A stretch of DNA of 63,404 nucleotides, filler included, from Neolecta irregularis DAH-3 (taxonomy: Eukaryota), in assembly GCA_001929475.1 (NCBI GenBank). It is 11 parts of 11 records of this genome, joined end to end, with 100 filler letters (N's around TTAATTAATTAA, not from the genome) between each part and the next. Parts side by side here need not be neighbours in the genome. Positions count along the whole stretch, not along the records: positions 5,871 to 22,405 come from LXFE01001087.1; 10 more parts are not named here. One strand, written 5' to 3'. Every line of letters starts with the position of its first letter. The stretch's first letter is position 1. Both the position numbers and the translations under genes were made by a program. Positions 3,595-47,711 of this stretch are shown one piece after another. Under the pieces are notes generated by a model, which had not been told where the DNA came from, ran no database searches, and saw nothing but the letters and a program-made list of their open reading frames with translations.

Positions 3595-4731
3595 ATGCAG
3601 ACCGATCCAGCAACTTACAAGCCAAATGAACGCGTCTTGTGCTTCCATGGCCCAATGTTGTATGAGGCAAAAATAGTAAAGACGCCAGACGAATATACCG
3701 AAGAGGAAAAATCAAATGTCGACGATGATCGTACCAGTAACGAAGCCCAAGATACCGTGAGCCTGTCAGAGCCGCCATATTTCGTCCACTACAAAGGCTG
3801 GAAGCAGACGTACTCTTTTTACCAGCCGGCAGCTTACTTCTAGCTGGGACGAATGGGTTCCTGTCGGCAGAATACTCAAATGGACAGAAGAGAACCTCAA
3901 AACACAGAAAGAACTCAAGAATGCCGTTTTGGCATCTTCAAAAAAACCACCAAAGCATTCGGACAAGAAGTTGGGTAATATTAAACATGAAGGCCGAGAA
4001 ACTACTCCAACCTCTGCTGCACGGGGCCAAAAACGAGCTCGTGAAGTTGAACTGGACAAGGCAGCAGGTTTCAAAGTATGGGGTTTCTAATCGATAGGAA
4101 GAAGAGTACGCAAGGAGACCCTTGGTCAAGATCAACATCCCTGATTCGCTCAAAGCACAATTGGTCGATGACTGGGAGAACATCACCAAGAATCAACAGG
4201 TATTCGTTCAAGTTCACCTACTCACTCCAAGCTTGTCACTCTACCCAGGGATCCTGATATCCAGACGCTACTCTCACAATACTGCGCCAGCACAAATCCA
4301 AAGAAATCAGGCACTGCCGAAGCAGACATCTTTGAAGAAGTCATCGTTGGTATTAAAACGTACTTTGAGCGGTCTCTTGGGAATATCCTGCTATACCGTT
4401 TTGAACGGCAGCAATACGTCGATATACGCAGATCCCACGAAAATAAACCTCTGATAGAAATATACGGCGCTGAACACCTCTTGCGACTATTCGGTACGCC
4501 CTTGTTGATTCGATCTTACAAGTAGTTTCTCTCCCCGAGTTGATTGCTCAGACAAACATGGATATACAGAGCGTCCAAGTCCTCAGAGAACACATTGAAG
4601 ATCTGCTAAAGTACTTTATTCCCACTTCATTTTTAATCTACAGATTCATGGCTAAAAATCAAAAGCAGTTCTTTCTCAGAGAATATTGCAATGCGTCACC
4701 AAGTTACCAATCTATGGTCAAAAACAACTAG
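3595..4731 (+). CDS. EAF3: MRG-family chromodomain protein (Eaf3/Alp13)
   Basis: [69 protein letters not shown]. Confidence 0.95.
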
Positions 4732-5759: not shown

Positions 5760-6018
5760 CATTGTAATATNNNNNNNNNNNNNNNNNNNNNNNNNNNNNN
5801 NNNNNNNNNNNNNNTTAATTAATTAANNNNNNNNNNNNNNNNNNNNNNNNNNNNNNNNNNNNNNNNNNNNGAGTCGGTAAGGCAGCAGAGATTTATGCTG
5901 AATTAATTTCAACCATCACAGTGAATTAGATCATCATAAGTATATATGAGATAGATAGACTAAATTAAGATAGTGAAAATAACTGCAGACCTTGAAAAGC
6001 AACTCGGAGTTGTGGCAG

Positions 6019-6971
6019 TTATCTTTGACGTAGGACAATTTCAAGGAACTGTTCAAAACCAATAGTTATAAAGCCGTCCTAACAATGAGTAACTGGGGCA
6101 GGCTGTTTACTTGCCCTGTCTTCATCGTATTTTTTGAAAACCTCTGTAAGGGTTTTGAGTCTACGATGATCAGTGAGATATCTGAATAGTAAGAGTTACG
6201 TGACGCAACTTTGAATGAACATATCAAATGTTACAGCGCCATTTCCTGGTTTGATTAGCCTGTCTCAACTCCGCCTAGTATATGAAATACCAGGCATCAC
6301 GATAGATGTACCTCGCTTGTCGTAGTTGTGGAACAAAATATTCACAAATTCAGGGCTTAGCCGATAGCCGAACCTGTGAATTACTGGCTGAGTTTGTGCC
6401 GGCGATTCTTACGCTCTGAGAGCTTCGGAGAACTCGTAGATATCGATAGAGCCTGATCCATCTTTGTCGAACCGAACAAATAGTTCCTAATAATTTGCCC
6501 CTACAACGATTTGCAATTGAATACCTTCCACTGCTTTAGATAATTCCAGAGGCTTTTGAATTCTTGGAAATTGATGGTTCCACTCATGTCTTTATCAAAG
6601 AGCTCGAATTTCAGAATACACTTGACTACTTTTGCACCTTGATCATCAACCGCGTGGTAGCCGGATGGAACCTAGGGTGGATTAGTCAAACAGGGATGCC
6701 GAGGAGTATACTCGGTCCAGTCTCCATTTACCAGGGCCCTGCGCAGTTCGATTTCACTGATGCTGCCGGACCCGTCCTGGTCTACTGCTCTGAACAAACC
6801 CAATAATTGGGCTTCGTGCGAGTTCTCATGAGGCGGGCGAATTGGGGAATGCGCAGATTGACGTGCTGGTGGCCGCCCAGGATAGGACGGCTGCCGCTGG
6901 CCTGGATACTGCGAATATTGACCTGCATGTAAAGAGGAAGGCGGAGGCGAGTGTGGATAGTTTCCAGACAT
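6019..6971 (-). CDS. PEF1: Penta-EF-hand calcium-binding protein (peflin/ALG-2-like)
   Basis: P/Y/Q-rich N-terminus; EF hands DQDGSGSISEIEL, DKDMSGTINFQEF, DKDGSGSIDIYE; ALVNGDWT motif. Confidence 0.9.
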
Positions 6972-7093
6972 TGTTGAATTGCATAACGGCGGTCAGTCTG
7001 TGCTTATATAGACTACCAAGACCGGTGACGTTGATTTGTCAACGTGCAGCTGCCAAGAACTGCTGCTAAAAACAGGTTCTTGCTCTAAATCAC

Positions 7094-7910
7094 ATGGGCC
7101 GTAGCCATGAGAAACAAACTTGGATATTTGGATATGGATCTTTGATCTGGAAGTATATAAATGCGATTTGAGCAGCAGAACTGACTACTACGACCGCCGC
7201 CGCACACAGTCGAGTCATTTCCCGGCTTCATCAAAGGGTTTGTCAGGCGGTTTTGGCAGGCAAGCGAAGACCATCGTGGAACCAAGGAATCACCGGGCAG
7301 AGTGGCCACTCTGATTTCCAGGGAGGAATGGCAAGGCTTGGACGATCCTGTAAGACGCATTTATAAATTTATTAATCCTCTCTACAGCATCACAGCGACG
7401 AAGCTGATGTTACTTGGGGTATCTTCCCTATAATGCAACATGGAACTGAATCAGGAATGGCGTATCGCATTGATCCAAATCATGCCCTAGAAGTTCAGGA
7501 ATATCTTGCCCATCGAGAGAAGGCATTCGGCATTCTCCTCCCGCACCTCTAACGTGTCTAGAACGGATACTCTATCAGTACAGTTCCGGTTTGGCGACAC
7601 TTGGCAGACTGCAGTCCCGTAGTGTCCGAAGCAACTTTGTATATTGGTACCACGCGCAATCCGCAATTTGTCGGTCCCCAGGATGTGGATGAACTTGCTG
7701 CGCATATATTCAAGTCCCGTGGTCCTTCTGGTAAGCTCAAAATCACAATCTCGCGCTCAGAATGAAGGCGAGAACAAGGAATATCTACTCAATCTCGACA
7801 CAGCGTTGTCCCATCTGGACCCAGAAACGCGCGATGAACATGTGAGAGACCTGAGTTGCAAAGTACGTCAGTTGGAAAATAAAAGCCCTTGTACTGTGGA
7901 TGATAAGTAG
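7094..7910 (+). CDS. GCG1: ChaC-family glutathione-specific gamma-glutamylcyclotransferase
   Basis: [27 protein letters not shown]...PGRVATL, REKNGY, GPSGENKEYL. Needs one GC-AG and one GT-CG intron. Confidence 0.9.
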
Positions 7911-8029
7911 AAACCTACATCAACAATGAGCAGAGATAAAATACATGGATGTGGACGTCATGACGTGATATTCAATTAAAACCCTAACTGCAACATCCCA
8001 AGTTGCTTTCCTTAGTCACCAAAAATACC

Positions 8030-8390
8030 ATGCCGTATCCAAAAGTATCTATTCAGTATTGTACGCAGGTGAGTTCGTTTGCCAATGCCCCCTGACTCGT
8101 AGTGCAAATGGATGCTTAGAGCAGCCTGGATAGCTCAAGAACTCCTGAGTACATTTTCAACATCCATTGGCGAGGTTTCGTTAGTACCCTCAAAAGGAGG
8201 GACATTTATTGTGACGCTCTCCACAGAGACACAAAAGGAAGTAATCCTTTGGGACAGGAAAAAACAGGACGGGTTTCCAGAAGCTAAAGAACTGAAAAGA
8301 CGGGTGCGTGACATCCTTGAGCCAGAGCGAAATCTAGGGCACGTAGATGGAAATAAAGCAGTTAAGGAGCTCTGTGAAAGCTGCAAGTAA
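8030..8390 (+). CDS. Rdx-family (SelT/SelW/SelH-like) thioredoxin-fold protein with CxxC
   Basis: MPYPKVSIQYCTQ|CKWMLRAAWIAQELLSTF...WDRK..DGFPEAKELKRRVRD. Confidence 0.9.
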
Positions 8391-8602
8391 TGGATGCGAC
8401 GGGAAACAATTACTGTATAAGACGCATCTGAAAACAAAAGACCGGAGAAAACAGGCAATCACAATAGCCCTCCGCCAAAGTTCAACTATCCATTCTGCTG
8501 CATCATGCCTGGTGGCAATCAAAAGCACAAGCACAAGGATGAGAGTTTGAGATTGCCTGAGCCAACAGCATAGACAAATCGAAAGATACAGCAGAGCCTT
8601 GT

Positions 8603-9737
8603 TCATTTAGCATTCTTTGACTTTTGCTTCCGCGGGGGCGTGACAGGCCTTCCAGTACCCATCCCTCCGTATACGTATTTCTGTTTCTTTTCTGCGGGCT
8701 TCAAAATCTAGCATGGTATTAGAGAGGTCTTGAAGACTCGCATACCTGAAAACTACATAGAAGGCTTTCGTCAACACTCATCATAGCACCAGCGTTATCA
8801 AACTCTCCACAGTAGTTGGGGGCGCTGAACAACGTGACCAGCTGTCGTTTCGAAAAGAATTCATATCCGTCTTCAACGACTTGATGTGCTCGACAGATAA
8901 GATCCATGTCATGCTTCGCAAGGAATCTTGAAACAACATCTGGTCCGAAGGTAAATGATACACCTCGATCGTTTTCACTCCATCCGGTTATCTCCTTGTC
9001 CGGGTCAGACCACAGAAGGTCACACAACAGCCCAGTATCCGGAACATCAGTAGGCCGCATCACTCGTCGAATCTGTTCCATTGAGTTTAAATCGGGAGAA
9101 AGACCACCATGCATCGTAAAGATCTTTTCATCGATGATGGCAGCAATCGGTAGGCAGTTGAAACAATCTGTAAATGTCTTCCATAGCTTGATATTGTATC
9201 GTCGTTTACCTGCCACATAAGTATCAAGAAACCCAGGAATGATACATTCATCGTAAAACCCATAGATTCGATTGATACTGGCACACTCATGATTGCCGCG
9301 GAGAATGAAAAAGTTTTCGGGGTATTTTATCTTATATGCCAAGAGTAAACAGATTGTTTCCAATGACTGTTTGCCTCGGTCGACATAATCGCCAAGAAAA
9401 AGATAATTGGCTTCGGGTGGAAACCCGCCATATTCAAAGAGACGTAACAAATCATAGTACTGGCCGTGAATATCACCTGAATGTGTGAGATTGCGTTGTC
9501 TTGCACAGTCTTACCACAAATCTACAAGATCAGAATGAGTAGTACAAAGGAAGATACTTTAATGGGGGCCTCTAGCTCCAGCAGAATAGGCTGATTGATG
9601 AAAATCTCTCTGGCTTTGGTGCAGAGATAGCGAATTTCATACTCTCCAAGAGTTACCTGCTTCCCGGGTCGATTGCCTCGCACTTCGAGTAATCTTTCAA
9701 TAATGTTATCGAGATCAATCTCATTTTGATCGGCCAT
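8603..9737 (-). CDS. GLC7: Serine/threonine protein phosphatase PP1 catalytic subunit
   Basis: [31 protein letters not shown]-terminal GRPVTPPRK. Confidence 0.98.
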
Positions 9738-10247: not shown

Positions 10248-13200
10248 TTATAAAGTCAAGAACTTGAGAGTAACCTCCTTTGCCAAAGGACCACTACCGC
10301 TTGTCATGTATATCAAAGATAAATGATACGCCGTCTCTGACGCCAGATCTTGTCTACCAATCCCTACGCTTTCAAAAGCAGCGTTGTGTAACTCATGTGA
10401 CAGAGCTAGTACCCTTTCGTAATACGGTATCGCCAAATGCATCAAACCTGATAATGAGAAGATTTCTTTTCATAGAGCAAGTACCGAGCTGATGGAAAGC
10501 GCGGCCGACGTTGAACTCAGCTTCCTGGCGTTCACAAAGGCCCTGTTTAATACGCCATTCATAGTAATGAAAAAGAAATATTAAACCTTGAAGGATCTGA
10601 TGCTGTCGATTAGATGTTTGTCGTTGCATCGCTCGATGAAGATGTGCTATCGCGATGCTTAAATTGATTAAAGGGTCAGTGGGAACAAGTGAGAACGCTC
10701 GAGTATAATAGTCTAAGGTCAGTTGAGCAAAGGAAAAGTCAAATTACTCAAGGCATGAATATGACTTCTTGCAGCTGCCAATCCATGGCCATATAACATG
10801 AGAAGAGAGACATTATAAGAATTCGGTTTCACTGGATCGCCTTGAGAATCCTTTCGACTCAACGTGGCAGATCCAGGAAGCGTATCCCCCGTCATAGCAC
10901 CATCTATCGCCTTAATTTGACGTAAAAGATACTTTGTAGAAGGATTTGCAACGAGAGCATTTGTATCACTCACTCGATTCCAAAATCGATATCCGTCAGA
11001 CATGAATCGGAAAGTGTTGGTAAACCAGCGACATGTATTTTGAGCTTCTTCAAAATCCATCGCCTGAAAAGCACATGCTAAAAGTTTAGGAGGGAAACAT
11101 AAAACATTGGTGTACCCATATTCACGACATAGGTTAGGAGGTTCCGTTTAGAATTCTGATAAAAGACGTTTACCATTTGTGCAGACTTGATAATCTCATA
11201 AGCTTCCCGAATATCACCCTCGCAAGTCAACAAGATCGCATACTATATGTAAGTTGAAAAAAGTTTAGATGAAAAGAACCTGGAGAAAGATATCAAGCCA
11301 ACGATCAAATGAAAGACCTCGAAATTCAGTTTCCTCCGCATCATGCGGATTGACATCGCCATCCCCGAGGTCTAACATGAGCTTGAAACTAAATCAATCG
11401 CACCAATTGAGGTTTGCAGCCGAGTTGCCATTCCCTTGAGGCTTTTGTCTAGATCAACTTTTTTCGAGCGATTTGTCAATGAACGTAATCCGGTAAACTT
11501 TGTACTCCTTTCAGAAGGGTAGAAAGCACTGACATGACGAAAATCGTCAATCAACTCGGCAGCAGTCTCCATCCATTCTTTAATGACAAAAGACTGGCCT
11601 TTATCGAGGTCCTTCTCTAGCATTTCAAGCTTGCGGTTACGAAAGATAATTTGTTCACATCTTTCTTTCTCCGCTGCAAGTCTTTCTTCAAGGGTAGAGC
11701 GACAGCCTGGTTTTCTGGAGCGTGTGGTGCCTGGAACTTGTGATTCAATCAGAGCTGCATTGTCCTCGACTGATCTTGCGACATTTCCACCCTCAATTTC
11801 AGGAGGGGTATGTTGCTCCTTTCGCAAACGTAAAACTATCAAGCTGAGTGAATGATGATAGTGTATGAGTGTACCTTCATTGACCAAAGTCAATGCTTCC
11901 TCGCGGCGTTCCATACTTTCATAAAACTCGGCAAGCTGTATCCTCGAATCTATATCTTTGGGCAGCGTAGCTATAACCGCTCGATAACATTCTTCAGCAT
12001 CTTCCATATCTCCGAGGCCCTTGTAACACTTGGCCATTGCAGACCAGAGGCTAGGTCCATTGGTCTCCAGGTTAGCATCATTGATTTACTTTCAAATATA
12101 CTGCTTCGAGTTCGATCAGTGGTGCGAAAAATTCAAGAGCTTCTTCAAAGTAGCCTTCTTGGCAGAGACTCTCTCCAACATCGAATAACGCATCAGCGAA
12201 ATTACTGGGATCGTGGTTCATCAGCAAATCAAATTGTCTCTGTTTCTAAGTGCCATAAGATAGAACAAGGATTACCATACTCTCATCAAGTATGCCGAGC
12301 CTTAGTCGGCACAATCCCAATTTGACTCGAATGTCTATAGGCAGGGAGTAATCTTGATGATCGTTAGAATTGAACTTTTTGCAAGCTTTGCGACGATCAT
12401 CATCAATATCGAACTCTCGATCGTCCTCAAATTCGTCCCAGTATGATTCAGATCTCCTCCCATTGAGCCACCGAGCACAGATCTTTATGAGGTTAATGCA
12501 TTGAGCCCACCGCTTGCCCAGCATATACAGCTCAGACATCATATTCAATTCAGACCAACCAAAATCTCCAGATGCGTCGATTCTTGTTTTGCGATTTTGA
12601 TAAGATGCCAACGCAGATTCGTAGAGCTGGACTGCATCTGATATGCGATTTTGGTCGATGTATGTCCGTGAAAGTTCGCGAATGATGTTCATATCGTTTG
12701 GGACCAGGTTTAAAAGTAATTTGAAGCCTTCAATTACCTGTATATAAGATAATGAGAACCAAGATCAAGACCTTTGCAGTATTCTTGAGACTTTTGTATA
12801 AAAGGGTCCTTTCCCAGATCACCGATACATTGGTCGGCTGATGTCTAATCGCGCGGTTTAGACAGTAGATAGCTTGACTGTAGTGTTGCGAGTTTTGGCT
12901 CATTCTGGCACAATCTATCCAGAGGTCTGCCTCTTTTGGTCTCAGATGTGCTGCCGTGATCCATGCCAGTAGACATTTTTCTTCGTTGCCGCGTTCCTTG
13001 TGCACCAGTCCGAGGGTTTGCCAGGCGGAGAAGACATTAAAGTCGATCCGAATGATCTCTTTGAGATGCTTCAGCGCTTCGTCGAGGTCGCCGGTTGCAT
13101 ACGCTTGATTCGCTCTTCCCATGAGTCCCTTTACTTCGTGCGAGGGTTCCAGGTCAACCATAGCACGTCTCCCGCCCTTGCGACTGAGAGAAGGTATGTG

Positions 13201-13516
13201 AAAGAGGATATACCCTGCGATCTCTGTGAACTTTTTTAAACCCGGCGACTGCCTTCAAGTCGTTGTGGAAATCCGACATCTCACCGTTGGTATCGACCAA
13301 GTCAAAGTTGCTCCCGACGCCTGCGACGCCCTTCAAGACATTTTCAAAGTCCTCGTTAATGTAGTCGCTGTCGTCGCTGTCGTCCTGTTCAAAGGCGGCG
13401 AACTTGTCAAATTCTTCGATTTCGACAAAATCGCCTTCGTCGGACAGTCGCCCCGCCGAGTATGCAGTGTTTGCGGTCTCGTAATGCAGATCGTCGCTGG
13501 GATCACCATAGTCCAT
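10248..13516 (-). CDS. TFC4: RNA polymerase III transcription factor TFIIIC TPR subunit (tau131/Sfc4)
   Basis: Acidic N-terminus; TPR arrays (AWQTLGLVHKE...AAHLRPK); LPIDIRVKLG; RQTSNRQHQILQG; QEAEFNVGRAFHQLG. Confidence 0.9.
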
Positions 13517-13802
13517 TATGGGTTCAGGGTTGGATTTGGATTGCTGTAACGCGGGTGTTTCATAAAAGAGGCGGCGGTGGATTGCATAAACCAACCTCCA
13601 ACTAGACGCTCCCCCGACTGCGCTCTGCCGTTGCCTTTCTCCTGCTTCTTTTTCGTTTTCTTCTGCGCGTACTAATTCCTGCCTGGATGTTTTCCTTGCT
13701 TTGCTGATCTGTGCCAGGATCCTTTGAGGACGGCCAGCCCGCAGGAATCCCGCCCTTTGTTCTTTCCGTGCTCCCCCGCATCCCCCGTTCGCCGTAATAC
13801 GA

Positions 13803-15552
13803 ATGGCTGCAAATCTGCCTGCAGCCGAGCCTGCATTCAGCAGTCCGCCTACTGCGATTTCGTCTGGCGCGAACTCGACTCTGCGCCCGCCACGCGCGCA
13901 GGGCCATCTTTCGTCGCGGACTGCGTGTGACATCTACTCGCCCCTCGGCGGCAGCAGACACCGCCCGACGTCTGAGGTTTTTGCACAGGCGCCGTTCAAG
14001 GCGAACACGCCCGAAGGCAACAGTCTCGCGCGATCCGGGGTCTGACGGGTGTAGCCGACGTCATGGACAAGTTTCTGCAGGAGCTCACCCGCTTCGAGGC
14101 GACGCTCGAGGAGATGGCGGCTGCGTCGCTCGACCAGAACTTCAAAGAAGAGCTCAGCGCCATCGAGCAGTGGTTCCGGGTGCTGTCCGAGGCAGAACGC
14201 ACCGCCGCGCTCTATTCGCTGCTCCAGCAGACCAGCCAGGTCCAGATCCGCTTCTTCATCACGGTTCTGCAGCAGATGGCCAAGAGCGATCCCATGGGCG
14301 CGATCCTCTCGCCGGCAAACTTCGAGAGAGGTGTGTCTGGCGCTGGCCAAGCTGATCCGCCCAGATGCAATGCAAACCCACCTCTCGCAGGCGATGAGCC
14401 AGGCCAGTACCGACCACAAAACACCGCCCGCCCGCCCGCCGCCCTCTCCAGCATTCATGCGCGGGCCGGGTCTGGATCCCGATACCATCAGCCAGATGTT
14501 TCCCGATGCCGCTGCGGCGCTGGAGAAGCAGCGCGCCCGACTCAAGGCCAACGGCGGCATGTTTGGCGATGCCGCAAACCCGCGGCAGAGCCCAAACATG
14601 GCCCGAGACCTTCCCGCATCTCCAAAGGTCTGGAGCGTGCCTTTGGATCCAACTCGGCCGAAATCGGCCGATATCCAGCAGTGGCATCCGCCTCAGTCGG
14701 CCACTTTCCCGCCCCGCCATGGTTATGACACCGAACCTTCGCCTTTCACTCAACCAGGTGCAAGCTGGGCTTCTATGGTTAACACTCCAATGGTTCCAAT
14801 GTTTGGTACTAGTCTGAACAATTCTCCACATCCAACCGATTTTGCAAATGCAACCTCGACAAAGCTGGCCGCGTGGTCGACCGGCGGGACCCCCCAACAA
14901 CGCGTGGTTCTCGAGTCGGATGTTAAAAAATTTAGAAGGGGCAAGAGCCCTATCACAACCCCTAATCCACATGGACACGGTAACGGTAATTACACCTCTT
15001 CCCCCACTATGGTCATGTATGACGAGAACGGCAACTTTGTTCAGGTCGGGAGTCAGTATGCTCAGGTTTCTACTCCTTTGCGCAAGCCCAGTCCTGGAAC
15101 AAGCAGTCCTTTCCAGCCGTCCTATGGTGGAGCGCCCGGCTGGTGTATGCCGTCTCTCTCGTCGCCGCAGCCTAATGCATATCTCGTTGCTTCTCCTGTC
15201 CTTGAGGGATACTTGTCCGATCAGTCGTCGTCGGGAGGTCGACGAAATGCGAATCGTCGTGGAAGCACCAAGACCATCGAAGACCCTACCGATGTCAATT
15301 TGCTCGCAGACATTCCTGCTTGGCTCCGAAGCTTGAGGCTGCACAAGTACACGGATATCTTCAAAGATATGAATTGGAAAGATCTTGTTCAGCTAACCGA
15401 CACCGATCTGGAGAATAAAGGCGTTGCGGCTCTGGGCGCTCGCAGAAAGATGCTCAAGGTAAATCTGCAATTCTCAATTTGGTTGTTAATATATATTCTA
15501 GGTCTTTGAACAAGTCAAGGAAGCGCAAACCGCTGGGAAGCTTGACAAGTAG
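13803..15552 (+). CDS. VTS1: SAM-domain RNA-binding protein Vts1 (Smaug homolog)
   Basis: [26 protein letters not shown] and SAM domain [14 protein letters not shown]...[13 protein letters not shown]. Start codon inferred. Confidence 0.93.
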
Positions 15553-15660
15553 TATCTATTTTTAAATGTATCGAGGCCGATTAACATTGTCTTGACGTCC
15601 CTTTTTTTATAATTTCAACCTGTTCTTGATTTCATATGACACGTTCTCCTGAAAGAGGCG

Positions 15661-15666
15661 ACGCGT
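15661..15666 (+). promoter_or_regulatory. MluI cell-cycle box (ACGCGT) upstream of PCNA
   Basis: ACGCGT lies ~85 bp before the PCNA ATG; PCNA is an established MBF target in yeasts. Confidence 0.5.
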
Positions 15667-15748
15667 CGGGCAGTCGAGACGAAAACTCCGCTCCTGAGTT
15701 TCTCCCTCTCGTGGGCTCTCGTGTTCATATCCAACCCATTTTGCCAAT

Positions 15749-16643
15749 ATGCTCGAAGCCAGACTTCCCCAGGCGCAAATCCTCAAAAAGGTCCTCGATG
15801 CTGTAAAAGGTGTGTTCAATTACTGCCAAAGGTTGTACCAACTTCCATTAGAACTCGTCAGCGACTGCAACTTTGATTGTAACGATGATGGACTAAGTTT
15901 ACAAGCTATGGACAATTCTCACGTTGCCCTTGTTGCGATGAAACTTGGCGCCGAAGGATTTGAACCGTACCGATGTGATCGAAACATTGCCCTCGGAATT
16001 AATCTCAACTCCCTTTCAAAAGTCCTCAAATGTGCCGCGAACGAGGATATAGTCACTTTGAAGGCCGAGGATACACCCGATAGTCTCAATCTGGTGTTTG
16101 AAGCACAAAATAACGATCGAATCAGTGAGTACGATGTAAAGCTCATGGATATCGACCAGGAACATCTCGGAATCCCGGACACAGATTACGATGCTACCAT
16201 TGAATTACAAAGCACAGAGTTTCAGAGGATCTGTCGAGATTTACTTGCGTTGAGCGAATCAGGTAAAACTTTTGACGTGCGTTATATCTAATCTTGTAGT
16301 TACGATTGATGCTACAAAAGAGGGAATAAAATTCTCTTGCAATGGGGATATCGGGAACGGCGCTATTACATTAAGGCAGCATCAAAACGTCGCAACCCCA
16401 GAGCAGGATACCACGATTGAATTGACTCAACCTGTCAATCTGACTTTCTCACTTAAATACCTGGTCAATTTCACCAAAGCTACACCATTGGCTACCCGAG
16501 TATCTTTAAAAATGTCTAGTGAAGTACCTCTTCTTGTCGAATACAAAATGGACGGTGGTTATTTGCAAGTGCTTTCGCCCAACCTATACTGACAATATAG
16601 ACGTTATTATCTTGCACCAAAGATCAATGAAGACATTGAATAG
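15749..16643 (+). CDS. POL30: Proliferating cell nuclear antigen
   Basis: [43 protein letters not shown]. The last intron is GC-AG (16565-16600). Confidence 0.98.
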
Positions 16644-20558: not shown

Positions 20559-22505
20559 GCAAATAAATTGATAACAAATTCATTCTTTTCCTACAAAACT
20601 TCCCGCGAGTAGGCTCTTGTTGATACTTACCTGTATATAGCGCTATCACCTGTCCATTATATATAACGCTATCAATTCGGATTTGTTGGTAAGTTCTCCA
20701 GTGAAAATTACGGTTACTAGTCAAACGATTCTTGTCTCACTTGATTGAAATTTGAAATGATCTCACGGAAGTTAAAACCCTGCTTATGTCTCACAAAATA
20801 GTCATATCTAACATTTCAAATTACCAGATTTCGATATTCTATTCAGGATATCGACTCGAATGCCAACGCAAGGATTCTTGAACAAATTTAGAATCAGTAA
20901 TTATTTTGAGGGTGTTGCAAAACGCACCCTAAGAGTTAGATTAGGTATCTCTTGCCACCTTATATACTCACATTTGTCATAAAGAAATGCAAAACTGAGG
21001 ATTTTCGCCTAAAACAACACTATTCCAAGTCCTTACTGAAGCTCCTCCCCTCCCCAACCTCCACAATTTTTATCTTTGCCAATTCGACACCTCTAATTCG
21101 CTATCCTACCTACTTTGGCCCAGTCCTGCTTCCTACGTCGGTCCCTGTCTCCATGAGACTATCTTAGTACTGGGAGTATGGGGCGTGCTGACAGGTCACC
21201 GCATGTACATGGGCCTTAGTATAGCTTTTCCTTGTTTTTTACCTGTCTTTTGACCTTGGGACAAATCCTGTGCTACACATTTCTAAAGGTCCCAATATTA
21301 TTGCACACCACCTACAGTTTTGGTAAAGTATACCAAAGATATATCTTTACATGTAGGTGCTTGCTTGTTGGATCAGTAAGTAATGCTCTATTCATGCCAC
21401 AAAGTAATCTAACGATCTGTTTTCTCGGGTTTATCCAAGTCATCTGAGTCTGCAAAGCTCTACCACTGCAGCCTGCATTTTACAAGCAGAGGGGAGAGAA
21501 AAGCAGTTAAAGACAAAGATAGAAGGAAAATATTAGTGCAGAAAAAGAAGAGAAAGAGAAATGACCATTGGGTGCTTAATGCTTATCACACTGTCAAACA
21601 GACTCCGGTCGGGATTAGGTAATTCCTTCGGTTTTCTGGTAGGAAGGCTTTTCCAAATGATAGTTGTTGCAGGGGAGGAAAAAAGGGGTGAGTATGGTAG
21701 TTGATTGCGAGAGGGGTCCGAGAGTATGACCTTGGGAAAAAAGGAGGCAGAGTATTTGTTTTTTAGACCATGAGAGAGTGTGCAAAAGGAGGGGAAATGA
21801 AAAGCGATGACAAGCTGGAATGCTTGAGGGTACACAGGCTGAGGGAAATTATGGTAGTGAGTTAATAATGCGGTGAGGTGGATGAAGTTTTGGCTATTAT
21901 GATATTGTGTAAAAATGTGTCTCGTACCACACGCTCCTAATCGACAAGATCAAATCGACCGTCTAGACAATAGTGTGTTACAGACAGGTTGTAGTTGTAG
22001 AGCCTTTGAGGTTTTAGGATTCTGGAAACATAGAGGAAAAAGAGGAAAACTATTCTTTGATTCTTAGCGGGATGAATAGAGCATTATCCATCCGTCCTAC
22101 AAATGTGCAGATACAGGACTATACAAGTATGAGCCACGTCATTGTAGTAAACCAAGGAAAAGAAAACCCATCAGATAACCGCAAAATACCATGTGTACAA
22201 AATTTTCCTGTGACAAGTGTCAAGGTTTGAACAGACAGAGGCGATGGGGCAGTTTAGACCGACTAGACGAGGCGACGGGGCAGTCTAGAAAGACTAGCCC
22301 GCCTCTCGGTAGTCTTGATTGGCGATACTGCAATTTTCCCAGTGTTTAGGGATATACCTGATGAGTATGGCAAAAGTGACTTTTCTTGAGGCTATAGATG
22401 TCGAGNNNNNNNNNNNNNNNNNNNNNNNNNNNNNNNNNNNNNNNNNNNNTTAATTAATTAANNNNNNNNNNNNNNNNNNNNNNNNNNNNNNNNNNNNNNN
22501 NNNNN

Positions 22506-28574: not shown

Positions 28575-29780
28575 TTATGATGCAAGGACCTTGATTTCAC
28601 GGATCGCCCTTTGAAGATTCCCTCCATGCATTGCGCTGATTGGCACAACCTTCACACTCTCCTCGACTTTTGCCATCAACTGTTCCATACCCACCTGTGC
28701 ACCCTCTAAATCCGCCTTGTTTCCAACGATCAAACGTTTTCGTTTCAAAAGAGCAGAATCATAAGCGTCCAACTCGTTTTTCAAAATCTCGTATTGTAGA
28801 GCCGGATCTCTTGAGAGATCAATGACAAAACAAAGTCCACGTGCCCGTTCAATATGCTTCAGAAATGCATGGCCAAGGCCTTTATTCTCACTTGCACCCG
28901 CAATAAGTCCCGGGATATCAGCGATTAAAATCTCCCCAATTTTCCCAAGGTAAGGGTTCAACGTCGTAAATTCATAATCCGCAATTTCTGGTTTTGCGTT
29001 CGTGATTTTCGAGAGCAATGTTGATTTCCCTGCATTGGGTAGACCGATTAATCCAACATCAGCGATTGTTTTCAACTCCAGTTGCAATTTAATCGTTAAT
29101 CCTGAGAAACCTTTGGTTGCAAATCTTGGAGCGGGATTTGAATTCCACGCAAAACTGGGATTTCCAATCCCAGGCCTCCCTCCATGAGCAACGAGAACCA
29201 TCCTCCCAGGAACACAAAGATCGAGTTCAACCGTTTTTGAAAAGCCTGGATCGACAAGGGTTTGTTGTACTTTTTGAAATCGATCATCGGTTTCGTTGAT
29301 CGCCTCAAACCCAGGATAATGAATATATCCACACTGGTCCCCTCCAGATCTTGCGATCTCTTTAACAACTGTTCCGACGGGCACATCGATAAATATGTCG
29401 TTTCCCTTTTTGCCATGACATAAATCTCCTTTGCCGTGGGTCCCATTCGAAGCTTTATATAAGGACTGAAGAGCGTGAAGAGACGATATCGAAGTATCTG
29501 TTCTTAGATAGACATTGCCACCATGGCCACCATGACCTCCATTAGGGGGTCCACGAGGCAAGAATTTGGCTCGATGGAATGATACACAGCCGTTTCCTCC
29601 GGCGCCTGATATGATATTAATCTGAGTTGAATCGAGAAACCTGGGTGTTGAATAGAGTCGACGGTGAATGAGGTGGCAAAAAATATTGGATGGCTTTCTG
29701 AGGGAAATATTCGTAGGGCTGGCGCTGGATGACAAATTAGATTTCGTAAATATGGGAAGACTGTTATTGGTGAACACCAC
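28575..29780 (-). CDS. MTG2: Obg-family mitochondrial GTPase; start codon uncertain
   Basis: FLD...GAGGNGCVSF.R.KF..RGPPNGG.GG.GG; ELKTIADVGLIGLPNAGKSTLL; FTTL; DIPGL; NKAD. Confidence 0.93.
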   Translation of the reverse strand: MVFTNNSLPIFTKSNLSSSASPTNISLRKPSNIFCHLIHRRLYSTPRFLDSTQINIISGAGGNGCVSFHRAKFLPRGPPNGGHGGHGGNVYLRTDTSISSLHALQSLYKASNGTHGKGDLCHGKKGNDIFIDVPVGTVVKEIARSGGDQCGYIHYPGFEAINETDDRFQKVQQTLVDPGFSKTVELDLCVPGRMVLVAHGGRPGIGNPSFAWNSNPAPRFATKGFSGLTIKLQLELKTIADVGLIGLPNAGKSTLLSKITNAKPEIADYEFTTLNPYLGKIGEILIADIPGLIAGASENKGLGHAFLKHIERARGLCFVIDLSRDPALQYEILKNELDAYDSALLKRKRLIVGNKADLEGAQVGMEQLMAKVEESVKVVPISAMHGGNLQRAIREIKVLAS

Positions 29781-31618
29781 AAGCCCCTCTTACCTAAAAA
29801 CTTGCCAGTTCGATGTCTCAGATGCTAAAAACTCGAGATTTGTTTGTGCTCTGGCAGGCGGTTGGACACACTGTTTGTTTGCGTCTTAGATATTAACAAC
29901 TTTGGTTTTTAGAATGCGATAATAAGAGATTTTATCCGGAATTAGAGGAATCCTGTAGGACTTTCTAATAGCATCATTGGAAATAATGCATGATTATGGC
30001 GTAACGATGACCCATAGTATTTAAACTTGTTTGTTAAGAATATATAACTTTACTGTTCAGGTATGAAACTTGAACGGTCTATGCTCGTTGAAGTTGAACA
30101 ATTCGCTTTTCCAACGACAACATGTCCTTGCCTCTTCGTTCTGATATTGATCTTGCCATAGCTAGAAGCGCACAGCAGATACGAGAAAGAAATATTAAAA
30201 TGAGAAGGCATTTTTTGTCGTGGACTTCTATCTCATGTACACGAATTGTGTCTATCACATATGCATGATAATTCCAATTCACAATCCTGAAGGTGAAAAG
30301 GACTCCTGATCGATGGTCCAATTTCCAGAACGGCAAGTTCGTCTCTCCCTGCCCCATCTACGTCACAGTTTCCTATTTGTGGAATTCTACATATACAAGT
30401 ATTTTTGAATCCGATTCAAATTACAGAACAGGGTTGTAAATTGTAATGCATTGCAATAAACTCCTTTAGCCTAGAGTGTGTAAGATGCTTGCCAGATTTT
30501 AAAAGTGTTCTACGCAACCTTTTGTCGGTAAAGTTTCGCCTAGGTGTATAAGCGAATTTCACAGAGTAAGTTATGAAGGTCTAAGAACGTTCTGATCTGC
30601 AGTGAAGGATATTCAAAAACACGTCATCCTCCCTTTGTGAACCAATTTTTATCACACTTGTCGAATTATATTTCTGTCTATTCTTGAGTTTGGACTCTTT
30701 TCCAATGAACAATATTTGTTCATCCAATTAGACATGTTTAACTCGACGGACAATTTTAATTAGTTTTCATCTTCCAGCCTTAGCACTATTTTTAAAGTGA
30801 CGAAGACAAAGAATAGAAGAGAAATAAGGTAAGACTCGGGGAGGCCGCAGAGCAAGTTTTGAAGATCACTTTGTTCAAACAAGCCATTCATACAATTCAT
30901 TCTTTGTGGAAAACTATTTCTAGCACTACAACCCCCTAGCCTATCAAATTTGATGATCTTTCGATGATATTACTTCTTTCAGCTCATATTAATCTAGTGA
31001 GTCTTTTGGGAACTTTCGGAATATGTGAATTAGCCGGTGGGTCGCTTACGAAATGGCAAGTTAACTTTCTGCATACTTGCGCACAAATACACAGAAGACT
31101 GTGAAAACACTCAATGCAGATAAGCTGCATGCACCCACCAATAGGCGTTTACATGTTTCACATCTCGGCTCAGTTTCTCTACTATGAAACGATTCGTAGT
31201 TGATAAACCCAACCTCGGAGGCGTACCAATTGGGAGATCGACGGTGGAAGCATCTAGTATGTCTGTGGGAAACCCCGACTTTGGCCTCTAGCTGGAAACC
31301 CAATATTTCTTCATATAGACCGCTGACATCCATACCCTGATGACTCTCAGAGGCAAAACACAGGAATGTGCTTTCGTAATGCCGAATATCCAGCCCCGCC
31401 GCTTATGGAAAGTAGGCGCATGAACCAACGCGTATCTAAAATCCAGAAGAGTGCGAATAATATGTTAATTCTGACGATCAACGCTGATAAAGCCATCGCT
31501 GTCTCCGAGTACTAAACATTCCTAGGTACGTTCATAATTTATTTGGGATTTAACAACAAAGGACCACTGGAACTCGAATTTGCCTGGCTATAACCAGCCA
31601 TTGCAAGATAATACTCTA

Positions 31619-37583: not shown

Positions 37584-38061
37584 NNNNNNNNNNGTGGCCC
37601 CGCCCGCCCTCCTTCCTACTCGGGCAAAAACACCCGCGCGCGGCTTGGCCCTTCTGGCTGCGGCGCTCCCCTGATCCAGGTCTCCCGGTCTCCGTCGGTG
37701 GCTTGACCATCCATCAGCACACGCCAGCCGCATCCGGCCACAAACAGATCGCCGCTGCGCTGTTCCTCTCCAGCAGCCAATCCCGTCCTCGGACACGGAC
37801 AGGGGTGATGATTATGCCATCGCCCGGTAGATCCCGCGCTCGTTGCACCGTCCCTGTCTGATGCTGCAACGGCCGAATACTCCGTCCCGATCTGACGTCT
37901 CCTGGCCCTGCTTGTCCTCGTGGAATCGAATCTTCCCTCAAAAGACTATACTACAGGTAGATGCTGCTGCTTATTGCCTTTGCGTCTGTTTGAAACATAT
38001 TTCTAGTTCCTTGGAAATTGATGTAAATAAACCGGCTGGACAAATACTCCCTCTGCAAAGC

Positions 38062-46448: not shown

Positions 46449-47711
46449 TTATCCCGGTGTTTTCGGCAAAATTCCAAGGACTAAGAGATAAACCATTTTT
46501 GTGAACCGCAAGACTGAGCATACCTTCCTCGAGCTCTTTTTGAAGTTGAGCTTCCCGTTCAGGATTATTTTCGATCACCACAGGTTTTTGGACAAGTTCT
46601 TTAGTGACGAACTTTGGGATCCCAGACTTCTTTACTTCTATCACGCGTTTCTCCATTGGTGTACGCGGGCTTTGAGGAATCTAAAATCAATTACAGCTGT
46701 AAAAATTGTTTATACCACTTGTGAAATATCTCTGAGTGCAGACGACTGGCGTCTCATCCATCTATCTGTCAGAGCATTCGCGTCTCTCTTCAATTTTTGG
46801 TTCTCCTTGGCCAATTGATCCAGCTGCCTCCTTAGATATTTGATAGTCTCATTTGGTTTTTCGTCACGTTGGGATAAAATATCTCTAATGGTACCGAGTT
46901 TGTCATTCATGAGATATTCCAATTTCTCTGGTTCATGAGGGACGTATTCCATTGGTCCTTGGTTGGGATCTCCACCACTCAAATATATAAGCTTCGACAA
47001 ACATGATTTAATGATCTCCCACAATTCTCGATGTTCTTTTGTGATATCTTCCAACTGACTCGAGATATAAGCACCGCTGTCTTCAGTGATACTTCGAATT
47101 GCTTCGGAAATTGCTGGAGTTCTACCTGCGATCGTAAGAGTCGCGATTCGTTTCCTATTATCGAGTGCTTTCTCCTGGAGACGCCCAATTTGACTATCAC
47201 GTTTTTTAATATCGTTGATGGATTGTGTGCGAAGATGGGTCAGAGTTGATTTTAGGCGTGATATTTCTGTGCGTAGTTGGGTGACAGAAGAAGTTGAGGA
47301 TTCCACAGATAAAGAAGAGGAACTTCAAGTCAGCTTTTAGGTTTCTTAACAGAGTCGATGCTGTAATTCTTTGATTAGTCGCGAATTCTCCTGGTTGATA
47401 CTTTCAATTTTAAGATTTAATCGTTCCTTCAATTAGTAGAGCCATAGTAATCCAAAGCACGATCTCTTTATCTTTATTAAATAACTCACTCTCATGGAGT
47501 TTTACGTCTTCAGCGTATCTTTTCTGGGTGGATACTTGTTCCTGCAGCCCCTGATCAGTTTCATTTCACGTTGACGGCGGCACAGTACATCATACACTCG
47601 TACTAAGCGGGTGACCAATTCAACTGTATCTTCTTCTCTTGAAAAATCAACAGGGTCCAGCACTAGACCGCGAGCTGCAAGGGAATTATTCAGGCTGAGA
47701 GGTGTTTCCAT
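46449..47711 (-). CDS. ADIP/Msd1/SSX2IP-like coiled-coil protein
   Basis: LNNSLAARGL N-terminus, long coiled coil, NDIKKRDSQIGRLQEK motif; multi-exon. Confidence 0.6.

Follow-up and report, generated by a model that had tools for sequence, protein, structure and literature searches.

Introns that end in CG instead of AG have already been documented outside Neolecta irregularis, as have ACG 3' splice sites, and the first intron of the N. irregularis ChaC gene described here is a further case of this rare U2-type class. The excerpted text of a manually curated annotation of Ganoderma lingzhi counts 19 GT-CG introns among approximately 92,000 (0.02%), which, like the ChaC intron, combine a U2-type context and a GT donor with a CG 3' end and are rare (PMC11590231). 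In that excerpt they form a bulk listing without per-intron analysis (PMC11590231), whereas the CG in Neolecta serves a conserved enzyme gene as its sole productive acceptor, lies at the modal distance from the branch point and belongs to a set of introns of ~36 nt. For Saccharomyces cerevisiae, the available portion of the work of Roy et al. (2023, PMC10711555) gives 10 nt as the shortest natural spacing between the branch point and the 3' splice site and describes Prp18 as both a ruler and a fidelity factor. According to the same portion, without Prp18 (i) sites separated by fewer than 10 nt from the branch point and sites with a G that is not part of an AG (BG sites) are used, (ii) ACG, validated by RT-PCR, is among the most efficiently used, and (iii) non-AG and branch-proximal sites are aided by potential pairing with the first intron base (PMC10711555). 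The ChaC acceptor shares with these sites the ACG sequence, the retained last G, with which G-G pairing is possible, and a position fewer than 10 nt away from the branch adenosine. The BG sites of yeast are, as far as that text goes, low-level alternatives that are unmasked by deletion of a fidelity factor (PMC10711555), whereas in Neolecta the ACG is seen in a wild organism and at its normal spacing of ~8 nt, below the 10-nt minimum of yeast.

In the yeast P complex, as presented in the part of the report of Wilkinson et al. that concerns this contact (bioRxiv 10.1101/212811), G(-1) forms a pair with G(+1), as does A(-2) with the branch A. With G as both its first and its last base, ChaC intron 1 could form the former pair; the Hoogsteen contact between A(-2) and the branch adenosine cannot form likewise with C at -2. 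Non-AG ends also occur in U12-type introns, which are removed by the minor spliceosome and carry an extended 5' motif and a conserved branch motif. ChaC intron 1 shares the non-AG 3' end with these introns and resembles its U2-type neighbours; a U12-type assignment was rejected on a by-eye comparison with the general consensus, since its GTATAT donor and ACTGAC branch are without minor-class motifs. A 3' site tethered to the branch point is found in Yarrowia lipolytica, where the spacing is fixed and very short, and in Giardia and Trichomonas, where the branch and 3' motifs are fused, the AG being kept. The 3' site of Neolecta is tethered as well, with a narrow spread of 5-12 nt and with the two motifs unfused.

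In the window, that is, the whole stretch of N. irregularis DAH-3 DNA analysed here (63,404 nt), two public sequencing runs contain the part in question: X1, which is DNA-like, and X2, the library type of which is unrecorded and which is listed as "DNA?". ChaC lies on the plus strand. Exon 1 (7094..7152) runs from the ATG at 7094 to ...GYGSLIW, which contains the N-terminal YGSL motif of the ChaC family, and ends with AA, bases 1 and 2 of a Lys codon. It is followed by intron 1 (7153..7192; 40 nt), which opens with GTATAT, contains CTGAC at 7181-7185, in which 7184 is the branch A, and closes with ACG, and by exon 2 (7193..7349), which supplies the third base of the Lys codon, continues with PPPH... 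and is backed by the Pfam profile, homologs and the X2 contig. Intron 2 (7350..7387; 38 nt, GT..AG) coincides with a joint in the X2 contig; exon 3 (7388..7418; 31 nt) has X2 joints at both edges and keeps the frame; and intron 3 (7419..7454; 36 nt, GT..AG; X2 joint, cut +1) has a branch-like CTGAA just 5 nt before its end. Exon 4 (7455..7522), present in the X2 contig, ends in ...REK and precedes intron 4 (7523..7561; 39 nt, GC..AG), which has the unusual donor GCATTC, contains an in-frame TAA and is absent from the X2 contig. The corresponding X2 joint (7520->7560, 2 ambiguous letters) allows the cut to be placed as 7523-7561, and REK|NGY is unbroken in the Pfam profile (85->86) across this intron. 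Exon 5 (7562..7730) is again present in the X2 contig, intron 5 (7731..7767; 37 nt, GT..AG; X2 joint, cut +1) leaves unused an AG that lies 1 nt past its likely branch A (CTCAG), and exon 6 (7768..7910) includes the stop codon. The five introns of the gene include two unusual sites, one a CG acceptor and the other a GC donor, which might reflect control at the level of splicing or just drift.

Joined together, the six exons amount to 627 nt and encode 208 aa without an internal stop, and this spliced product aligns nearly end to end with all ten fetched fungal homologs (43-59% identity, E values of 5e-47 to 1e-78). In a piecewise scan with Pfam PF04752, the translated pieces matched the profile in order, at positions 1-12 (exon 1), 14-57 (exon 2; E = 6.8e-14), 58-85 (exon 4), 86-142 (exon 5; E = 2.1e-8 over 86-140) and 137-175 (exon 6) of 176. 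Scored singly, three pieces (52.7, 34.9-38.8 and 23.6 bits) exceeded the 21-bit cut-off; the match of exon 1, which involves residues 9-20 (E = 0.0013, 19.3 bits), taken alone falls below it. By its profile matches and its colinearity with the homologs, the predicted gene product is a ChaC protein and a putative glutathione-specific gamma-glutamylcyclotransferase.

The first-pass annotation had claimed that exons 1 and 2 lie in different frames, that the nearby AGs fail to restore the frame and that removal of 7153-7192 gives WKPPPH, and all of this held up on closer analysis. The frame of exon 1 stops at the TGA at 7169, and that of exon 2 (PPPH...) is open only past the TGA at 7182-7184. Splicing from 7153 to the AGs that end at 7172, 7175, 7178, 7209 and 7214 leads to early stops at aa 66, 65, 64, 72 and 52, respectively, and retention of the intron to a stop at aa 25; inspection of the sequence revealed no AG between 7179 and 7207. 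When all in-frame deletions starting within 7140-7171 and ending within 7182-7199 were enumerated, none ended in AG, the sole GT start was 7153, and WK|PPPH resulted from 7153-7192 alone (40 nt, with GT at 7153-7154 and CG at 7191-7192). The K of exon 1 is the last residue of Pfam positions 1-12 and the second residue of exon 2 is position 14, so the profile is continuous over the junction and no residue can be gained or lost; K is directly followed by PPP in each of the ten fungal homologs. As regards the features of U2-type introns, we found precise removal, a GT donor, a CTRAY-like branch and a length in keeping with the introns of this genome (40 nt, against 32-41 nt in the supported set described below), the AG end being the one feature that is absent. 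The donor GTATAT begins with GTA, the commonest donor start among the predicted introns of the window (72 of 118), and the branch motif ACTGAC (A at 7184), assigned by motif match, is consensus-like. Shifted boundaries for this intron were ruled out by the 0 ambiguous letters at the X2 joint.

At the level of the genomic base, the X1 contig (Logan assembly; 9958 letters at a word depth of 450) is identical to the window throughout 6892-8500 and carries the CG, and no alternative X1 contig was seen at this site. It excludes a consensus or assembly slip at 7191-7192. The first-pass annotation had advised confirming the bases near the CG in reads, and the re-assembled X1 contig has CG there and no AG; the assembly itself may have been made from X1, which does not count as a second specimen for the CG. 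By their run labels, X1 comes from sample S1 and organism A and X2 from sample S2 and organism B. In X2, a single contig (8269 letters, mean word depth 266.6) extends over 6500-8500 with 0 other letters relative to the window. This contig is continuous up to the end of exon 1 at 7152 and there joins 7152 to 7193, skipping 40 letters (GT..CG) with 157 letters on the shorter side and 0 ambiguous, so that the transcript junction 7152|7193 anticipated in the first-pass annotation is the one seen in this contig, X2 being taken as derived from RNA by inference. A template-switch artefact at 7152|7193 was rejected, as there are no shared letters and no microhomology at the joint.

Altogether, the X2 contig skips nine short segments, eight within 6500-8500 and the ninth via a loose end that matches 6456-6485. 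They are located at 6487-6524, 6603-6637 and 6672-6711 on the minus strand and at 7153-7192, 7350-7387, 7419-7454, 7523-7561, 7731-7767 and 8069-8102 on the plus strand. Seven are GT..AG, one is GC..AG and one is GT..CG, the ends match the strand of the host gene, and removal of every segment leaves the reading frame open; besides the CG intron, X2 is thus without eight introns of three genes, five on the plus and three on the minus strand. Since only splicing yields both strand-matched ends and open frames in nine removals, X2 was treated as transcript-derived, and we infer that its source was RNA. The share of sampled words present in X2 (0.74) is about what we estimated for the loss of eight introns and of the words that span their edges. 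No X2 contig that retains ChaC intron 1 or uses the AG at 7209 was seen, one contig being present over the 2 kb. Contigs hold no quantities and drop rare variants, so neither the efficiency of CG splicing nor an AG-25 product that is made and then degraded is readable from X2, and the CG may be spliced inefficiently, its product being just the sole stable mRNA. Over ~1.7 kb of shared sequence, including intergenic DNA, X2 shows 0 differences from the window, which argues for one genotype with X1, without proving it; the X2 contig is without intron 1, and an X2 individual that bears AG would give an identical junction.

The X2 contig is unbroken over 6524-8500, a region that comprises three genes on both strands and intergenic DNA, and it spans the 122-nt gap between the divergent start codons of the EF-hand gene and ChaC. 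Such continuity over intergenic DNA suggests overlapping or read-through transcription in a compact genome, or slight carry-over of DNA.

To place the ChaC intron among its neighbours, we assembled 17 introns that are supported independently of a GT-AG assumption, nine of them from X2 and eight from the continuity of Pfam profiles, which fixes acceptors better than some donors. The latter are 1564-1604, 1774-1811, 1870-1906, 4200-4231 and 4494-4525, together with 9522-9557 and 9477-9514 in the PP1 gene and 16263-16299 in the PCNA gene. The supported introns are 32-41 nt long, and 16 of them end in AG and 1 in CG. A YTNAN branch motif was assignable in 16 of the 17, and half of these (8 of 16) have their last base 8 nt past the branch A, the range being 5-12; the first-pass statement that the CG lies 8 nt past the branch A, at a spacing used by other introns here, is in full agreement with this distribution. 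A chaining predictor with an intron model for GT/GC-AG introns, scored without a spacing preference, returned 118 introns in the 63-kb window versus 6 in reversed-sequence controls. The spacing histogram of the predicted introns has its peak at 8 (25 cases), followed by 6, 7, 9 and 10, and the median length among those of at most 48 nt is 36. Introns are dense, with about 90-118 predicted in 63 kb and exons as short as 31 nt (7388-7418), and the branch-like motifs in the window include CTCAC and CTCAG besides CTRAY. Intron 6487-6524 (minus strand), in the EF-hand (PEF1-like) gene, lacks a recognisable YTRAY close to its 3' end, and a TAG inside it goes unused.

Past the branch A, ChaC intron 1 reads C T A C T A C G, with the first G at spacing 8; beyond the CG, further Gs occur at 12, 15 and 18, and the first AG is found at 25. 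In the first-pass annotation, distance from the branch point was proposed to determine the 3' site, and this proposal stands in part only. The location of the CG at the modal spacing of 8 speaks for it, and several observations speak against it: (i) 16 of the 17 supported introns end in AG over spacings of 5-12; (ii) intron 6603-6637 bypasses a CG at spacing 6 and uses an AG at 8; (iii) in three supported introns, AGs at spacings of at most 4 are skipped; and (iv) the AG at 25 in ChaC intron 1 is unused by the X2 contig. As AG ends are found in 16 of 17 introns in spite of spacings that vary from 5 to 12, the AG is evidently read and not merely counted to. The data fit a choice made within a short reach of ~5-12 nt, in which an AG wins and, where there is none, the first G (here in the context ACG) is ligated.

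On this evidence, it is highly probable that 7153-7192 is a genuine U2-type intron of N. irregularis ChaC with an ACG instead of a YAG 3' site. Its 5' site GUAUAU and its branch ACUGAC are, going by sequence, normal for this genome. With introns of ~32-41 nt and 3' sites 5-12 nt past the branch A, presumably few nucleotides can reach the active site; an AG inside this reach would be taken if present, and in ChaC intron 1, which has none, the first G, at spacing 8, would take its place. By analogy with the yeast P-complex structure, the last intron G may still pair with the first intron G, and the contact of -2 with the branch adenosine would be lost or weakened, -2 being C. Exon ligation at ACG would then give the only in-frame mRNA and the full-length 208-aa ChaC, in accordance with the observed junction and open reading frame, and mis-spliced or unspliced ChaC RNAs, carrying early stops, may be degraded.

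A contrasting explanation regards the CG as peculiar to the DNA specimen, through a private mutation or an error: the true or ancestral site would be AG, altered by A->C at 7191 in the sequenced individual, and the RNA-like contig would derive from an AG individual; the CG genome would then mis-splice ChaC and carry a fresh loss-of-function allele. That X2 has 0 differences from the window, intergenic DNA included, fits the same or a clonal genotype and weakens this explanation, and so does the rest of the ChaC gene, which is intact and has no other defect; a read or consensus error in particular is very unlikely, given the X1 contig depth of 450 without an alternative branch at the CG. Some weight remains with the different sample and organism codes of X1 and X2, with the fact that the removed intron is unreadable in X2 and with the great rarity of GT-CG introns elsewhere (19 of approximately 92,000 in the excerpt of the curated Ganoderma annotation; PMC11590231); an AG at 7191-7192 would equally fall at the modal spacing of 8, and nothing can be decided from spacing here. 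On balance, we regard a private mutation or error as quite improbable.

It also appears unlikely that most transcripts are unspliced at intron 1 or spliced to the AG at 7209 and removed by nonsense-mediated decay, the CG junction being a minor by-product and a crippled 3' site holding ChaC at low output, possibly as a form of regulation. The stops at aa 25 in the unspliced form and at aa 72 in the AG-7209 form would suit such a scheme, as would the second weak site of the gene (the GC donor GCATTC), the inability of contigs to rank isoforms, rare or unstable ones being dropped, and the poor use of G-but-not-AG sites by wild-type yeast in the text cited above (PMC10711555); opposed to it are the lack of an X2 contig with intron 1 or with the AG-7209 junction, among one contig in all, and a ChaC protein that is otherwise fully conserved, as expected of a gene in use. 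The X2 depth of 266.6 is the same for ChaC and its neighbours, which share one contig, so depth cannot decide the matter. Scarcely credible is the view that X2 is not derived from RNA and that the intron-less form is DNA (a processed copy or a library or assembly artefact), because nine missing segments with strand-matched ends and restored frames are left only by splicing, and because the word share of 0.74 is close to our own estimate of the intron loss. This view can draw on the "DNA?" listing of the run, on its unrecorded library and on a contig that spans intergenic DNA and three genes; as to the last point, de Bruijn assemblers commonly merge overlapping transcripts of neighbouring genes in compact genomes, which counts against it.

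If, as we prefer, 7153-7192 is a genuine intron with an ACG end, it is conceivable, if rather doubtful, that the Neolecta spliceosome, working at a modal spacing of 8 nt and so below the 10-nt minimum ascribed to Prp18 in budding yeast, is naturally relaxed at -2, like that of prp18-deleted yeast, and that ACG or other non-AG G sites at ~+8 are regular and constitutive in many genes. Were this true, such genes would be systematically absent from GT-AG-only annotations, which seems to be the case for this ChaC. One intron does not show general relaxation. Out of a set of 15 supported introns, the predictor recovered 8; it missed the CG intron, and therefore its silence cannot exclude other non-AG introns. 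Allowed non-AG ends, it made three calls in the 63-kb window, two of which were rejected as bridges between separate genes (from a SAM-domain gene to PCNA and from a rhodanese gene to GRASP). The third, a predicted 44-nt GT...TG intron at 47545-47588 (minus strand) in an ADIP-like coiled-coil gene, has a CTGAT branch, an AG at spacing 4 and its end at 10; it may represent another non-AG site or be artefactual. Open-frame and regex intron scans performed no better than reversed or shuffled controls, and in a comparison of adjacent long open reading frames without a GT/GC..AG link, chance links solved almost every pair. Codon-bias scoring trained on long open reading frames was skewed by a GC-rich region and missed known introns. 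The region 12000-16000 has a G+C content of 0.52, compared with about 0.43 in the window, and contains long overlapping open reading frames on both strands, by which the codon model was skewed.

For comparison, exon 2 matched 20 loci in one metagenome scan, at no more than 77% identity over partial matches, and none of these was a close relative. Ten of the 20 loci were inspected: seven read through the position of the Neolecta junction without an intron, one (L002) has introns at other positions, and two further loci gave no clear reading.

The ChaC gene, with its CG acceptor and GC donor, was probably missed by annotation and is probably absent from the public gene set. In a collection of 5.8 billion proteins, no entry of 92 residues or more exceeded 73% identity to exon 2, and no entry of 99 residues or more matched exon 5 at E <= 1e-8, blank searches of this kind being weak evidence. 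The same collection does contain "GTPase Obg [Neolecta irregularis DAH-3]", to which the open reading frame at 28575-29789 (minus strand) is 100% identical over 73% of the query, a match that also assigns the window to N. irregularis, and it is the presence of this neighbouring Neolecta protein, with exons 2 and 5 unmatched, that makes ChaC a probable unannotated gene. One text supplement of PMC13263728 has no ChaC entry. Among the papers listed for Neolecta in connection with introns or splicing, none concerned its splice signals, and the main text of the Neolecta genome paper (PMC5309816) has 0 mentions of intron, splice, RNA-seq or transcriptome. Pipelines that force GT-AG lose such genes in intron-dense fungi. 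The ChaC intron offers a clean natural case: a conserved enzyme gene has a single productive mRNA, and making it requires a 3' site that lacks the A of AG. Neolecta, where introns are ultra-short and the spacing falls below the minimum of yeast, is also a natural test case for distance versus sequence in the choice of the 3' site, its intron geometry making the distance constraint unusually visible.

Two minor features of the window may be added. Blocks of N are located at 2761-2860, 5771-5870, 22406-22505 and eight more places, none of them near the CG intron, and consist of ten pairs of 44-base blocks 12 bases apart and a 10-base block at 37584-37593. In the PP1-type phosphatase gene (minus strand), introns of 36 and 38 nt, both recovered by the predictor (9477-9557), flank an apparent 7-nt micro-exon at 9515-9521, which we take to encode the conserved stretch right before the metal-binding DIHGQ motif.
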